DNA of 64,000 bases from Roseibacillus sp. Lineage in GTDB: Bacteria; Verrucomicrobiota; Verrucomicrobiia; Verrucomicrobiales; Akkermansiaceae. Positions within the stretch are counted from its first letter, which is position 1; each line of letters opens with the position of its first letter. A program made the translations under genes and the position numbers. Location: assembly GCA_965242925.1 (NCBI GenBank), contig CBDEUM010000022.1, positions 1-64,000 of the forward strand, read 5' to 3'. The notes beneath the pieces are model-generated. The model had not been told where the DNA came from and did no database searches. It saw nothing but the letters and a program-made list of their open reading frames with translations. Shown here one piece after another: positions 21,998 to 64,000 of the stretch.

Positions 21998-22981
21998 ATG
22001 AGCCGCCCGAGAATTGCCGTTACAATGGGAGACCCCGCCGGGGTCGGTCCCGAGATCTGCCTCGACCTCCTGCAGAACGGGCAGGTAGCGGATCGCTGCA
22101 TTCCCATCGTCTTTGGCGATGCAAGGGTGCTGGACCGGTGCGCGGAAAAAACCGGAAAACCGGCACCTTCCAGGCTCCTTGAGTTGACGGAGTTGACCTC
22201 CGTGGACGCTCCCGCCGTTCTCGACCTGGAGGCCATCCATCCGGACCAGGTTGCTCCCGGGACGGTCAGTCCCGCCACCGGCGGAGCCACCTACCGCTAC
22301 CTCGTGGAGGCCATCGATGCCTGCCTGCGCGGTGAGGTTGACGCCATCACCACTGCTCCGGCCAACAAGGAAGCCCTCCACGAAGCCGGGATTTCCCAAC
22401 CGGGACAGACCGAGATTCTTGCCGAACGCACCGGAACGAAGCGCGCTTGCATGATGCTCACTTCCGATGTCCTCACCTGCAGCTTCGTGACCGTGCACGT
22501 CGGCTACCACGAAGTTCCGGCACTCCTCAACATCGAACGCATCCTCGACGTCATCGAACTCACTCACCAGTCCATGAAGCGACTTCGAGAGCGGGAACCG
22601 AAACTGGCGGTCTGCGGCCTCAATCCCCACGCCGGCGAAGGCGGACTCTTCGGGAACGGAGAAGAGGAGCGAATCATTACGCCTGCGATCGAGATGGCCC
22701 GATCCCGCTCCATCATGATCGAAGGGCCCCTTCCTCCCGACACCGCCTTCCTCGAAAAACGCCGCGAGACGACCGATGCCTTCATCTGCATGTATCACGA
22801 CCAGGGCCACATTCCTCTCAAGGCCCTCGCCTTCGACCGGGGCATCAACTGCACCCTTGGCCTGCCCATCGTCCGCACCTCGGTCGATCATGGCACTGCC
22901 CTCGACATCGCCTGGCAGGGAAAGGCCAATCCACGAAGCCTGGTGGAGGCGGTGACCCTCGCGGCCCGGCTCTGCCGCTGA
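21998..22981 (+). CDS. pdxA: 4-hydroxythreonine-4-phosphate dehydrogenase family (PdxA/PdxA2)
   Basis: IAVTMGDPAGVGPE, TAPANKE, VTVHV, GLNPHAGEGG, GPLPPDT, MYHDQGHIPLK, RTSVDHGTALDIA. Confidence 0.95.
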   Translation: MSRPRIAVTMGDPAGVGPEICLDLLQNGQVADRCIPIVFGDARVLDRCAEKTGKPAPSRLLELTELTSVDAPAVLDLEAIHPDQVAPGTVSPATGGATYRYLVEAIDACLRGEVDAITTAPANKEALHEAGISQPGQTEILAERTGTKRACMMLTSDVLTCSFVTVHVGYHEVPALLNIERILDVIELTHQSMKRLREREPKLAVCGLNPHAGEGGLFGNGEEERIITPAIEMARSRSIMIEGPLPPDTAFLEKRRETTDAFICMYHDQGHIPLKALAFDRGINCTLGLPIVRTSVDHGTALDIAWQGKANPRSLVEAVTLAARLCR

Positions 22982-23139
22982 CAGTCTCGCCTGTCCGGAA
23001 TCACTACAAGGACAGGGATTGCGGAGTCCGTGGCCCGATCACGCATGAAAGATTACCGGCCCCATAACCGTCTTCTTTCCCAGACAGAAGTTTGAACTCG
23101 GAAAACTTCCTCCCTTCCCTGAAAATCGACTCGGTTCCT

Positions 23140-23835
23140 ATGAAACTATCAATCAAGCAATGTCTCATCATGGCCACGGCCCTGGGGCTGGGATTCCTTC
23201 CTGCCCGGACGTGGACAAGCGCAGATGGATCAAAGTCCTTCGAGGGAAAACTCAAGGCCTATGATACCACCGCCGGAAAGGTCTCGGTCGCCGTCCGGAA
23301 TGGAAAAACGCTCACCTTCTCCATCGACAAGCTGTCGGAGGCGGACCGGAAGTTTTTGGCCGAGGAGGCGGGGAAACTGGACGGCACGGCGGAGAACAAG
23401 GCCGCGATGGAGGAATTTACCCGCACCGATATCGGCAAGGCCTTCACCAAGATGCAGATCCTGGAGGGCGAGGCCTTCGCTCCGCATGAATTTGAAAGCG
23501 TCCCGGATTACTTCATCCTCTACTACTCGGCCAGCTGGTGAGGCGGATGCGTGCAAGCCGCTCCACAGTTGGTGGAGTCCTACCAGAAAGACGTGGTCCC
23601 CAATCCCAAGGTTGAAATGATTCACCTCAGTCGTGACCGGGACAACGCGGCCGCGCTCAAATGGGCCAGGAACGATAAGCTCCCGTGGCCTACCATCATG
23701 AGGGATCAAATCGATGCGTCCCTCTTGACACACTACTCCAACAGGCTCCCGACCTACATCCTCATTGACCACGAGGGCAACAAGGTCGCGGAGGGAAAAG
23801 GGCCGGTCTGGTCCAAGCTCAAGACCATCAAGTAA
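23140..23835 (+). CDS. Predicted selenoprotein: signal peptide + SHD1-like domain + thioredoxin-like domain with a UxxC motif (Sec at 23539-23541)
   Basis: The two track ORFs 23092-23541 and 23551-23835 are in the same frame, separated by TGA GGC GGA TGC. Readthrough gives FILYYSASW-U-GGC-VQAAPQLV...VEMIHLSRD...LPW...RLPTYILIDHEG (231 aa). N-terminal RTWTSADG..FEGKL..GKV..KLSEADRKFL is SHD1-like. A downstream hairpin is present. Confidence 0.85.
23560..23578 (+). promoter_or_regulatory. Putative bacterial SECIS element of the thioredoxin-like selenoprotein
   Basis: G-CTCCAC-AGTTG-GTGGAG-T: six Watson-Crick pairs plus a G-U pair; the loop starts 25 nt after the UGA, with G at loop position 2. 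Confidence 0.7.
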
Positions 23836-23985
23836 GTCGCCCGTAGAAGCTATTGAGGAGGGTGCGATCCCGTCAGGGCAGCGACCCGGAACGGACTCCG
23901 TTTCACGCGCCCGGGGCAGGAACCCCTTCGCCATAACCTGTAAAATCCCTTCCGCTCTTCCTCCAACATGCTAGAACCAGCCATC

Positions 23986-25236
23986 ATGCATCGCCCCTGT
24001 TTTCCCGCCGGCCTCCGCCCTCTCCTTCTCACTCTGGCCCTCCCCGGCCTCTCCCTTCCCGCCTCCGCGCATGACTGGCCACAATGGCGCGGTCCCAATC
24101 GCGACGGACGCTCCCAGGAAACCAACCTCCTCAGGAAGTGGCCTGCGGATGGACCACCCCTGGCCTGGAAAGCCCGCACCGCTGGGACCGGTTTCTCAAG
24201 TATTTCAGTATCAAAGGGAACCATCTATACGCTGGGAGATCTCGCGGACGGCTGCCACGTGATCGCCCTCAAGGAAGCAGACGGGTCGCAGATCTGGAAG
24301 ACGAGGACCGGTGAATCAGGGGGACACAGGGGCTACCCCGGCCCGCGCAGCACTCCCACCGTGGACGGCGGCCAGATCTTCGCCCTCGACCAGCATTCCA
24401 ACCTCGTCTGCCTCGATGCCACGAACGGAGAGAAGGCCTGGTCGGTCAACCTGCAGGACAACTTCGGGGGTGAGATGATGTCGGGGTGGCGCTGGAGCGA
24501 GTCCCCCCTCGTTGATGGAGAGTCGGTGATCTGCACTCCCGGGGGGGCCAAGGGGACTGTCCTCGCTCTCAGTCGCAAGACCGGCAAGAAACTCTGGCAG
24601 ACCAGTGAATGGACCGACCCCGCCGGTTACTCCTCGGTCATCATTGCCACCATCCATGGCGTCCGCCAGTATGTCCAACTCACCGGCAAGAGTGTGGCGG
24701 GAATCGATCCCAAGTCCGGCAAGGTCCTCTGGAGAGCCGGGCGTTCCGGCAAGACAGCGGTCATCACCACCCCGGTGATCCGCGAAAACATCGTATGGGT
24801 GACTTCCGCCTACGGCGTGGGCTGTAACGCCTTCCGCATCGACAGGAAGGACGGGGAGTGGTCGACCGAGGAAATCCACTCCAGCCGGAAATTTGCCAAT
24901 CACCATGGCGGCGTGATCGAACTGAAGGGACACGTGTTCGGATCAAGTGGTGGAACCTTCGCCTGCATGGACATCAAGAGCGGCGAACTCGTCTACCGCG
25001 AGCGGAGCGCGGGCAAGGGAGCCACCGTCTACGCAGACGGGCACTTCTATCTGCGCAGTGAAAACGGTCCGGTGGCCCTTATCGAGGCCTCCTCCCAGGA
25101 ACTGAAGGAGGTGAGCAGCTTTGAACAGCCCGGACGCAGCGACAAGAAGGCCTGGCCCCACCCCGTGATCTCCAACGGCAAACTCTACCTCCGCGACCAG
25201 GATCTGCTTCTCTGCTACGACATTTCCGCCAAATAG
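23986..25236 (+). CDS. PQQ-binding-like beta-propeller repeat protein (exported)
   Basis: Signal peptide, DWPQWRGPNRDG, LLRKWPADGPPLAW, GPRSTPTVDG, SESPLVDG, WPHPVISNGKLYLRD; alternative start at 23968. Confidence 0.92.
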   Translation: MHRPCFPAGLRPLLLTLALPGLSLPASAHDWPQWRGPNRDGRSQETNLLRKWPADGPPLAWKARTAGTGFSSISVSKGTIYTLGDLADGCHVIALKEADGSQIWKTRTGESGGHRGYPGPRSTPTVDGGQIFALDQHSNLVCLDATNGEKAWSVNLQDNFGGEMMSGWRWSESPLVDGESVICTPGGAKGTVLALSRKTGKKLWQTSEWTDPAGYSSVIIATIHGVRQYVQLTGKSVAGIDPKSGKVLWRAGRSGKTAVITTPVIRENIVWVTSAYGVGCNAFRIDRKDGEWSTEEIHSSRKFANHHGGVIELKGHVFGSSGGTFACMDIKSGELVYRERSAGKGATVYADGHFYLRSENGPVALIEASSQELKEVSSFEQPGRSDKKAWPHPVISNGKLYLRDQDLLLCYDISAK

Positions 25237-62476: not shown

Positions 62477-64000
62477 TCCAGCAAGGCCAGGAAGAACCCG
62501 CTCCGATCCCCACCGTCAACATCGACGGAGCGAACGTCCCGTTCACAGAGGGGGAAACGCTTTACGAGATCTGCTCCCGCCAGAAAAAAGATATCCCTAC
62601 CCTCTGCTACGACCCGAGGCTGGACCCCTTCGGGGGATGCCGACTGTGCGTCGTGGAACTTGAGGGCGCGCGCAACCCGGTGGCCTCCTGCACGACCCGG
62701 GCCACCGCAGGAATGAAAGTCCGCACGAAAACCGAAGCCATCGAGAACCACCGCCGAACCCTGCTGGAACTCGTGGTATCCGAGAATCGCCAGGTGGAAG
62801 TGGACGAACTCGCAGGCTACGCGTCGCAGGAACTCAAGACCCTCGTGGAACGATACGACGCCAACCGCGGCCGCTTCAAAGGCAGGCAATCCGGAGAGAG
62901 CCGTGACGACGATGACAACCCCTTCATCCTGCGCGACTACGACCAGTGCATCTCCTGCTACCGATGCGTCCGGGTCTGCGCCGAACAGGAGGGCGACCAC
63001 GCCATCAGTGTCATGAACCGCGGCTTCGATACCCGGATCACGACCGAATTCAATGGGCTTCTCCGCGACTCCGACTGCACATTCTGTGGCCAATGCGTCC
63101 AGACCTGCCCGACCGGGGCCCTGGCGGACAAGAAGGCCCTCAAGCACGTTGACGTCCCTGGCAAAATCGAGAAGACGCGCTCCGTCTGCCCCTACTGCGG
63201 GGTCGGATGCTCGGTCGATTTGTTAAGCAAGGGCGACAAACTGGTCGGGGTTCTGCCGGCGATGGATGGTCCCGCCAACGAAGGGGCCCTGTGCGTGAAG
63301 GGGCAGTTCGCCTTTGGGTTCGTCCAGCACGACGACCGACTCAAGACTCCCATGGTCCGGGGCGAAGACGGCAAACTCCATGCCACGAGCTGGGACAATG
63401 CCCTCGACCGGGCCGCCGAGGGACTGCGTGCGGTCGTCGAACGCCACGGCCGGGAAGCACTCTACGCCATCGCCTCCGGTCGCGCCCCCCACGAGGCCGC
63501 CTACACAATGCAGAAGATGATGCGCGCGGGGTGGGGGCTCAACCACATCGACAACTGCTCCCGTGCCTGACACGCCCCCACCGTCGCCGGTCTGGCGGCA
63601 ACCATCGGACGCGGAGCCATGTCGAACCCCCTCGCGGACATGGACAAACCCGACGTCTTCTTCTGCATCGGCACGAACATGACCGAGTGTCACCCCGTTG
63701 CGGCAACGAGAATCAAGAAGGGAGTGGCGGCCGGAGCAAAGCTGATCGTCGTCGACCCGCGGCAGATCGAACTGGCAAAGCGGGCGGACCTGCACCTGCC
63801 CATCCGGGTCGGATCGGACACCGCCCTTCTCCTCGCCATGACCCACGTCATCGCCCGTGATGACCTGGTCGACCAATCCTTCACCGCGGAGCGGACTACC
63901 GGTCTTGAGGAGTTTATCGAACACGTCCGGGACTTCTCCCCCGAATGGGCCGCCGGGATCTGCGAGGTCCCCGCGGAGGACATCGAAGCGGCGGCCCGGA
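62473..64000 (+). CDS. fdhF: Selenocysteine-containing formate dehydrogenase alpha subunit (FdhF/FdsA-like with N-terminal Fe-S domains), runs off the window
   Basis: [2Fe-2S] CYDPRL..GGCRLC..SC; two [4Fe-4S] motifs CISCYRCVRVC and CTFCGQCVQTCP; CPYCGVGC..LCVKG. IDNCSRA-TGA(63568-63570)-HAPTVAGL..GRGAMSN..IGTNMTECHPV..LIVVDPR continues in frame, like E. coli FdhF CARV-U-HGPSVAGL. Confidence 0.95.
63583..63599 (+). promoter_or_regulatory. SECIS element of the formate dehydrogenase alpha subunit
   Basis: GTCGCC-GGTCT-GGCGGC hairpin with the loop 18 nt after the UGA; same position and GGUCU core as the E. coli fdhF SECIS. Confidence 0.85.

Follow-up and report, generated by a model that had tools for sequence, protein, structure and literature searches.

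Selenoproteins with a thioredoxin fold and a UxxC motif, where U denotes selenocysteine (Sec), dominate marine selenoproteomes, and 82.3% of the sequences in the Global Ocean Sampling (GOS) survey are thiol-oxidoreductase-like (PMC2398784; statements taken from this and the other papers cited apply to their accessible portions). One catalogued family, the ‘thiol-disulfide isomerase-like protein’, combines UxxC with a pfam13905 Thioredoxin_8/cd02966 domain (PMC9312934, PMC13188914) and was first seen as 4 Sargasso Sea sequences in 2005 (PMC1088965). Here we analyse a gene from a 64,000-nucleotide stretch of Roseibacillus sp. DNA (contig CBDEUM010000022.1; the whole stretch is referred to as the window), in which an in-frame TGA at 23539-23541 falls at the active site of a thioredoxin-like domain. 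This TGA is almost certainly decoded as Sec, and the region very probably constitutes a single gene for a two-module, putatively exported selenoprotein that has been mis-annotated.

Compared by description only, the ‘thiol-disulfide isomerase-like’ family and the protein described here have in common a marine habitat, a Thioredoxin_8 domain, a UxxC motif and widespread Cys homologues. The accessible descriptions of that family (PMC1088965, PMC9312934, PMC13188914, PMC2398784) mention no SHD1 domain, no signal peptide or export, and no Verrucomicrobiota. Other selenoproteins that share this fold type and have Sec in, or next to, the CxxC motif have been described as well (PMC13188914), but these carry U-G-C, whereas here U-x-x-C follows S-A-S-W.

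Likenesses also extend to Cys enzymes. Tryparedoxins and nucleoredoxin-like 16-kDa thioredoxins (4fyu, 2lus, 1o7u, 3s9f) share the S-A-x-W-C-x-P-C context and the domain length; unlike the protein described here, they are eukaryotic, cytosolic, Cys-only and single-domain, without a signal peptide or SHD1. ResA, StoA, TlpA and Etrx (1st9, 3erw, 1jfu, 2yp6, 4hqz), which are exported or anchored thioredoxin domains kept reduced by DsbD/CcdA, are the top Foldseek matches to our structural model. They are Cys enzymes, at 19-26% identity, and usually lie beside client or ccm genes, whereas here there is no conserved client gene. Paralogues of the present gene that lack SHD1 are, like Etrx, lipoproteins, as indicated by a lipobox-like sequence. 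SHD1 itself (Sla1 homology domain 1, PF03983) is a small SH3-like barrel with an R-x-W-T motif, as here. In yeast this domain is cytosolic and binds an endocytic signal; the SHD1-like module described here, in contrast, forms the N-terminal part of putatively exported proteins.

A single frame across an in-frame TGA

The region 23140-23835 (+) forms one frame of 231 codons, from an ATG at 23140 to a TAA at 23833-23835. Its sole in-frame stop is the TGA, at residue 134, in the context ..LYYSASW-U-GGC.. (residues 127-137), and past this codon the frame goes on via VEMIHLSRD, LPW and RLPTYILID, just as the original prediction had read it. Calling open reading frames (ORFs) with translation table 11 yields two ORFs in place of the one frame, the first of 149/133 aa and the second, GTG-started, of 94 aa; homologues align over residues 1-231, across the TGA. 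The Pfam model Thioredoxin_8 (PF13905) likewise matches residues 123-214 across the TGA (1.3e-9, 38.7 bits against a cut-off of 27) and is found in 15 of the 15 aligned family members. The gene is thus real beyond chance, because Thioredoxin_8 aligns across the TGA and because the TGA is kept in dozens of homologues.

The TGA is also present in independent assemblies. Of 24 sequencing runs listed, 14 contained at least half of the sampled words, and 4 of these 14 were compared. An independent marine DNA contig (X7 record 15) covers 23114-24100, and RNA-library contigs from two studies (X17 record 4, 23412-23793, and X18 record 7, 23405-23684) extend across the TGA, leaving more than 31 nt to either side of it; a further RNA-library contig (X15 record 2) stops 22 nt beyond it, and some stretches of the gene (23351-23391 and others) are without RNA-library contigs. 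No letter difference is listed at 23539-23541 in either type of contig, meaning that the independent DNA and the RNA-library contigs carry TGA, rather than TGC or TGT, at this site.

A profile search of 5.8 billion proteins then gave 363 matches at E <= 1e-10. Among the best 120 of these 363, 67 are no longer than 175 aa; 66 of the 67 short calls end in x-x-S-W (60 in SASW), and 66 contain R-T-W-T. P0035 (89% identity) and P0036 (97%) end exactly at ..YYSASW. Named short calls are entered as ‘hypothetical protein’ from Roseibacillus sp., Akkermansiaceae, Rubritalea and Verrucomicrobiaceae, and the full-length Cys forms are named ‘thioredoxin-like domain-containing protein’ or ‘thiol-disulfide isomerase/thioredoxin’. 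As judged from sequence, the short public entries are gene calls cut at the Sec codon. The expectation that annotation pipelines would split the gene is therefore borne out, both by public calls that stop at the TGA as hypothetical proteins and by the two table-11 ORFs.

The same calls could be read to mean that the TGA is a true stop, separating a 133-residue SHD1-only protein from an unrelated or decaying downstream ORF, as in a split gene or pseudogene: gene callers do end at ..SASW, and a GTG-started 94-aa ORF does follow the TGA. We consider this highly improbable in view of a six-frame search with the protein against 61 related genomes, 60 of which gave matches (76 weaker matches fall outside the listing). 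Among the matches listed, 58 places in 25 genomes cross exactly one in-frame TGA with the downstream frame kept in phase, at identities ranging from 92% to about 40% for full-length matches and about 26% for domain-only tandem paralogues. In addition, the thioredoxin domain spans the TGA and is uninterrupted in Cys orthologues, and, as described below, synonymous sites of a hairpin are frozen only when the TGA is present, in genomes with Sec machinery. These data establish the integrity of the gene across the TGA.

Sec/Cys alternation, a SECIS-type hairpin and Sec machinery

Cys/TGA alternation was found at this very site among the related genomes. In the six-frame search, homologues in other genomes, for example G030, G060, G059 and G021, lack a stop here. 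TGA-bearing loci that were fetched read A/G-S-W-U-x-x-C in 33 of 34 cases and S-F-U-x-x-C in one, and the fetched Cys loci read A-S-W-C-x-x-C in all 5. In alignment A1, which comprises 15 sequences (11 Sec and 4 Cys), the column of U134 contains only Cys or Sec, while W133, C137 and P204 are invariant, which confirms the proposal that the TGA occupies the nucleophilic Cys site of the thioredoxin motif. In a phylum-wide sample of 301 genomes, of which 97 matched at E <= 1e-15, Cys forms with both modules are widespread, one genus carrying it in 22 of 22 genomes, and TGA forms occur in the window's own genome alone. On this evidence, only the window's genus and a few neighbouring genera, from two GTDB families in one order, carry Sec forms.

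A quick maximum-likelihood tree was built from 58 distinct domain sequences, 35 with Sec and 23 with Cys. On it the Sec label takes 3 changes, of which well-supported branches force 1, and 0 of 500 label shuffles equalled this. A single origin of the Sec form followed by duplication may be compatible with such a tree. The window's gene falls in a minor subclade (G000, which is its own genome, G012, G015, G003 and G002, with G029 beside), separate from the main SHD1 subclade, to which most genomes of the genus contribute. Its own genome has three Sec-thioredoxin genes, namely the window's gene and two on contig C14 that stand in tandem, one a lipoprotein form without SHD1 (L084:7192-7761) and the other an SHD1 form (L084:7820-8539). 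Tandems of 2-3 genes recur elsewhere, for example at G009:C122, G014:C58 and G041:C1. Separately, a Cys-form homologue in another genus (G178:C6:124848-125504) has one in-frame TAG, which may reflect a pseudogene or an error.

Downstream of the TGA, the hairpin GCUCCAC-AGUUG-GUGGAGU, noted in the original prediction, was confirmed at 23560-23578; it begins 19 nt past the UGA, and its loop starts 25 nt past it. Taken alone, this 19-nt element has a folding energy of -9.8 kcal/mol (z -3.53), a value attained by 1 of 200 shuffles. A published model of the bacterial selenocysteine insertion sequence (SECIS) specifies a loop of 3-9 nt, a stem of 4-16 bp, a spacing of 16-37 nt and a minimum free energy <= -7.5, together with a G in the first two loop positions (PMC13188914, as quoted in the Fig. 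2 legend). The hairpin satisfies this model, having a 5-nt loop, a 6-7 bp stem, a spacing of 25 and an energy of -9.8, with G and U at loop positions 2-3.

To compare this element between loci, 31 distinct TGA segments, running from TGA-9 to TGA+54, were aligned without gaps. The block GCUCC-N-[C/G]-AGUU-[G/A]-[G/C]-UG-[G/A]-AG is nearly invariant in these TGA forms and sits at one fixed distance, with variable flanks. When the 7-bp stem is imposed, 85.3% of cells pair, versus 30-52% after a shift of the 3' partners by 1-3 columns. Three stem pairs never vary and one changes from C-G to G-C in two paralogues; the same compensatory change is seen in the own-genome lipoprotein paralogue (L084:7192-7761), whose peptide reads APELLE. 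The codons concerned are equally constrained: in the Ala, Gln and Val codons of the hairpin the third position is T in 32/32, G in 32/32 and G in 32/32, and Leu is UUG or UUA only. The third position of the Ala131 codon, which lies nine bases 5' of the TGA, shows C13, A7, G11 and T1. Sec forms keep 5.41 of 6 stem pairs (32 sequences), as against 2.61 of 6 in 23 distinct Cys forms, and the encoded peptide is A-P-Q/E-L-V/L-E/K in Sec forms and variable in Cys forms (APDLVK, TPKLVS, APHSVE etc.). In the 12 GUGAAG forms, with Lys for Glu (A2 columns 25-30 and 46-51; e.g. L084:8228), the canonical stem contains a C.A, and RNAfold favours another register in which UGCUUC pairs with GAAGCA. A search of the whole window against Rfam at the gathering threshold returned 0 matches, a null that is uninformative because the SECIS of the FDH gene, described next, was missed as well.

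This FDH gene is a second Sec gene, whose presence in the window the original prediction had used to argue for Sec decoding. It is indeed there, as an FDH-alpha-like molybdopterin oxidoreductase at 63181-64000 (+) that runs past the window's end, with a TGA at 63568-63570 in NCSRAUHAPT; the fold of its element is ambiguous. The genome as a whole (4.58 Mb, 42 contigs, 89.87% complete) encodes selB (287.5 bits, above cut-off), a tRNA-Sec (59 bits; ARAGORN anticodon tca) and selD (G000:C14:573853-574776, L009; 366.6 bits). The selD gene has an in-frame TGA of its own, in ..SSCAGUASK.., followed about 29 nt later by a hairpin with a G-U-C apical loop, G-U first. Beyond this genome, selA is present in all six tested TGA-bearing genomes of other genera and in 23 of the 25 TGA-bearing genomes overall, the two misses being the window's own (89.9% complete) and G006 (70%). 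In the other 14 selA-less genomes there is no TGA form among the matches listed. One genome, G030, has selA, yet carries the Cys form.

These distributions bear on whether the UGA might instead be read through as another residue (Trp, Cys or Gly), owing to a suppressor or near-cognate tRNA or to a variant code. One full-length public call, P0002 (235 aa), does show W at the Sec position (SASW-W-GPC), and under selenium limitation Cys can be inserted wrongly at Sec codons. The W of P0002, however, most likely reflects a gene call that reads TGA as Trp. TGA serves as an ordinary stop codon in these genomes, also in paralogues of the Sec-thioredoxin family, the uninterrupted homologues that carry the motif have Cys, and never Trp, at the column (35 of 37), and the TGA forms sit in selA-bearing genomes, save for two incomplete assemblies. 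Non-Sec readthrough is accordingly a very remote prospect, and decoding of the UGA as Sec is the reading that we retain.

Domain architecture and proposed chemistry

The coordinates of the gene and its parts are collected in Table 1. Pro204 is listed there as the presumed cis-Pro position of the thioredoxin fold.

Table 1. Parts of the selenoprotein gene, in window coordinates
Feature	Coordinates	Strand	Basis
Whole selenoprotein gene (predicted)	23140..23835	+	M1 invariant in 15-sequence alignment A1
Probable Sec-pathway (secretory) signal peptide, residues 1-22, MKLSIKQCLIMATALGLGFLPA	23140..23205 (next module starts at 23206)	+	Predicted from sequence
SHD1-like small beta-barrel module, ~residues 23-80, invariant R23-T-W-T26	23206..23379	+	AlphaFold2 strands, weak PF03983
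Thioredoxin-fold domain, ~residues 103-231, TlpA/ResA/tryparedoxin type	23446..23832	+	Pfam, PDB and Foldseek matches
Predicted Sec codon UGA (U134), N-terminal nucleophile position of W-U-G-G-C	23539..23541	+	Aligns with invariant Cys of Cys forms
Resolving Cys137 codon TGC	23548..23550	+	Invariant column in A1
SECIS-type hairpin within the ORF, 7-bp stem, loop AGUUG, encoding A-P-Q-L-V-E of helix alpha-1	23560..23578	+	
Pro204 codon, presumed cis-Pro position (R-L-P-T-Y)	23749..23751	+	P204 invariant in A1

An AlphaFold2 model built from the 15-row alignment has a mean predicted local distance difference test (pLDDT) score of 86.3. It contains a four-stranded barrel at 23-61 (strands 23-27, 33-42, 47-52 and 57-61), a long helix at 67-94 and a thioredoxin domain that opens with an N-terminal hairpin (106-115) and places U134 at the start of helix 135-152, where pLDDT exceeds 90; residues 1-18 are disordered, with pLDDT below 50. 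The resemblance to tryparedoxins and nucleoredoxins that had been suggested is borne out by sequence matches in the PDB, the closest solved chains being 4fyu, a 16-kDa filarial nematode thioredoxin (6.8e-22), 2lus and tryparedoxins (about 1e-18), then the pneumococcal surface thioredoxins 2yp6 and 4hqz, and then ResA and StoA. The top Foldseek matches are ResA, StoA, a secreted mycobacterial oxidoreductase, tryparedoxins and TlpA, at E about 1e-7 and target TM scores of 0.6-0.69. The thioredoxin fold of the domain is thus clear. No NCBIfam selenoprotein model matches the protein; ResA scores best, with 25.1 bits where the cut-off is 170.

The predicted SHD1 domain fared less evenly. In the window protein PF03983 is sub-threshold (E 0.039; 14.2 bits against a cut-off of 23.7); it reaches E <= 0.01 in 4 of the 15 aligned family members (best 8.1e-6), and the model contains a barrel. 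The N-terminal module is therefore best called SHD1-like, by transitivity and modelled fold. In these genomes many further open frames, 130-1000 aa long, begin with a module of this kind, and the module appears to be a common one of exported enzymes in these bacteria. In P0122-P0124 (413-417 aa), for example, an SHD1-like N-terminus is fused to SASA (PF03629, sialate O-acetylesterase-like). The extreme N-terminus has K2 and K6 followed by a hydrophobic core (Kyte-Doolittle mean 2.2 at residues 9-20), suggestive of a signal peptide, and hence of export, with cleavage before the invariant R-T-W-T; the paralogues without SHD1 start with a lipobox-like L-L-A-S-C.

From these features a path from decoding to catalysis can be proposed. 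SelB and tRNA-Sec would decode the UGA as selenocysteine, directed by the hairpin within the A-P-Q-L-V-E codons, to yield a product composed of a signal peptide, an SHD1-like barrel, a long helix and a thioredoxin domain with W-U-G-G-C. After export by the secretory Sec pathway, the selenolate of U134 would attack a disulfide (or sulfenate) of an extracytoplasmic substrate, C137 would then resolve the mixed selenenylsulfide, and the intramolecular Se-S bond would be re-reduced by a DsbD/CcdA-type membrane shuttle. The SHD1-like module would probably position the enzyme on an envelope component or partner. The chemistry of W-C-G/P-P-C thioredoxins underlies the assignment as a reductase, and a DsbD_TM protein is encoded in the genome (G000:C4:127864-128520, 70.5 bits). 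We regard this specific mechanism, an extracytoplasmic disulfide reductase with DsbD-type recycling, as fairly probable.

A real selenoprotein could also serve another chemistry, as a DsbA/DsbC-type oxidase or isomerase, a peroxidase-like scavenger or, in the manner of ResA/TlpA, a dedicated maturation factor for cytochrome c or copper centres, instead of a general extracytoplasmic reductase. The protein has weak Pfam matches to AhpC-TSA (5.2e-5) and Redoxin (1.8e-4), with Thioredoxin PF00085 below its cut-off (E 0.003), and its nearest bacterial folds, ResA, StoA and TlpA, are dedicated maturation reductases. Sec is reported to heighten peroxide reactivity in other families (PMC13188914). The peroxiredoxin PxxxTxxC motif is, however, absent from the protein, and no ccm, cytochrome or copper-chaperone genes are conserved beside the gene in the flanking frames compared. 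The motif W-[U/C]-G/P-P/G-C is of the thioredoxin/tryparedoxin reducing type. Several copies of the gene per genome likewise argue against one dedicated client. We therefore judge these other chemistries unlikely, and favour the disulfide reductase.

The genomic neighbourhood of the window's gene consists of pdxA (21998-22981) and a PQQ_2/BamB-like beta-propeller gene (23968-25236), whereas the C14 tandem pair is flanked by a dienelactone hydrolase gene and ribosomal L21. The order pdxA, Sec-thioredoxin, propeller recurs only in two same-genus loci (L021, L022), and functional linkage cannot be claimed from it because the genomes are too closely related. The suggestion that the protein maintains the exported proteins encoded nearby is unsupported, because the neighbours are not conserved across genera.

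Several observations weigh against the interpretation of this gene as a Sec-decoded, exported reductase. RNA-library contigs are not proof of transcription, since DNA carry-over is possible. Neither TIGR00474 nor PF03841 detects selA in the 89.87%-complete own assembly; of the Sec genes expected, selB, selD and tRNA-Sec were thus found and selA was not. This absence is likely to be an assembly gap, because 18 of 19 same-genus genomes do have selA and the one that lacks it is 70% complete. As for the hairpin, in its 65-nt (z -0.24) and 47-nt (z -0.01) contexts it folds like shuffles. Stem mismatches occur in the TGA forms, with C.A in 12 of 31 (the GUGAAG forms) and C.U in 6 of 31. The best hairpin of the own-genome SHD1 paralogue reaches just -7.1 kcal/mol, and some paralogues slightly miss the -7.5 SECIS energy limit. 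Only 1 of 7 stem pairs (2 cells) is changed on both sides, a value reached by 213 of 500 shuffles, and strict covariation is therefore slight. The anticipated SECIS-type hairpin is kept only in TGA forms and fits the model, with thin covariation, and on the sequences compared its support lies in conservation and in the contrast between Sec and Cys forms rather than in covariation. Finally, no redox partner is conserved across genera in 77 flanking frames from 23 loci, and it is by inference that we arrive at export, the reducing direction, the donor, the substrate and the role of SHD1.

Place among known selenoproteins and significance

A literature search for selenoproteins with SHD1, or from Verrucomicrobia(ota) or Roseibacillus, gave nothing relevant, with thin coverage of subscription papers. 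The view that the SHD1-UGGC combination is uncharacterised holds to this extent; thioredoxin-fold UxxC selenoproteins as such had already been catalogued. A thioredoxin-fold UxxC selenoprotein of the Thioredoxin_8 type is therefore known, and the variant features here are the SHD1 module, the tandem expansion and the SECIS in helix alpha-1. A bolder interpretation, which we put forward tentatively and hold to be rather doubtful, is that these genes may form an uncatalogued, lineage-restricted family of exported selenoproteins of marine Verrucomicrobiales, separate from the ‘thiol-disulfide isomerase-like’ family. Such a family would have SHD1-tethered and lipoprotein forms, at least three genes per genome, often 2-3 in tandem, that together make up one selenium-dependent extracytoplasmic redox system, and a SECIS built from, and freezing, the A-P-Q-L-V-E of helix alpha-1.

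Known principles of Sec decoding and thioredoxin chemistry are unchanged by this work. It corrects a systematic annotation error, in that dozens of distinct public calls break off at the Sec codon and a single one translates it as Trp, and it enlarges the selenoproteome of marine Verrucomicrobiota by exported (predicted) thioredoxin-like selenoproteins, three of which belong to the window's own genome. It also indicates how a SECIS in the coding region constrains the protein that it serves, A-P-Q-L-V-E/K being fixed where Sec is used and unconstrained in the Cys forms. With orthologues of both kinds available for comparison, these bacteria offer a tractable system in which to ask what advantage selenium gives an extracytoplasmic reductase in oxic seawater.

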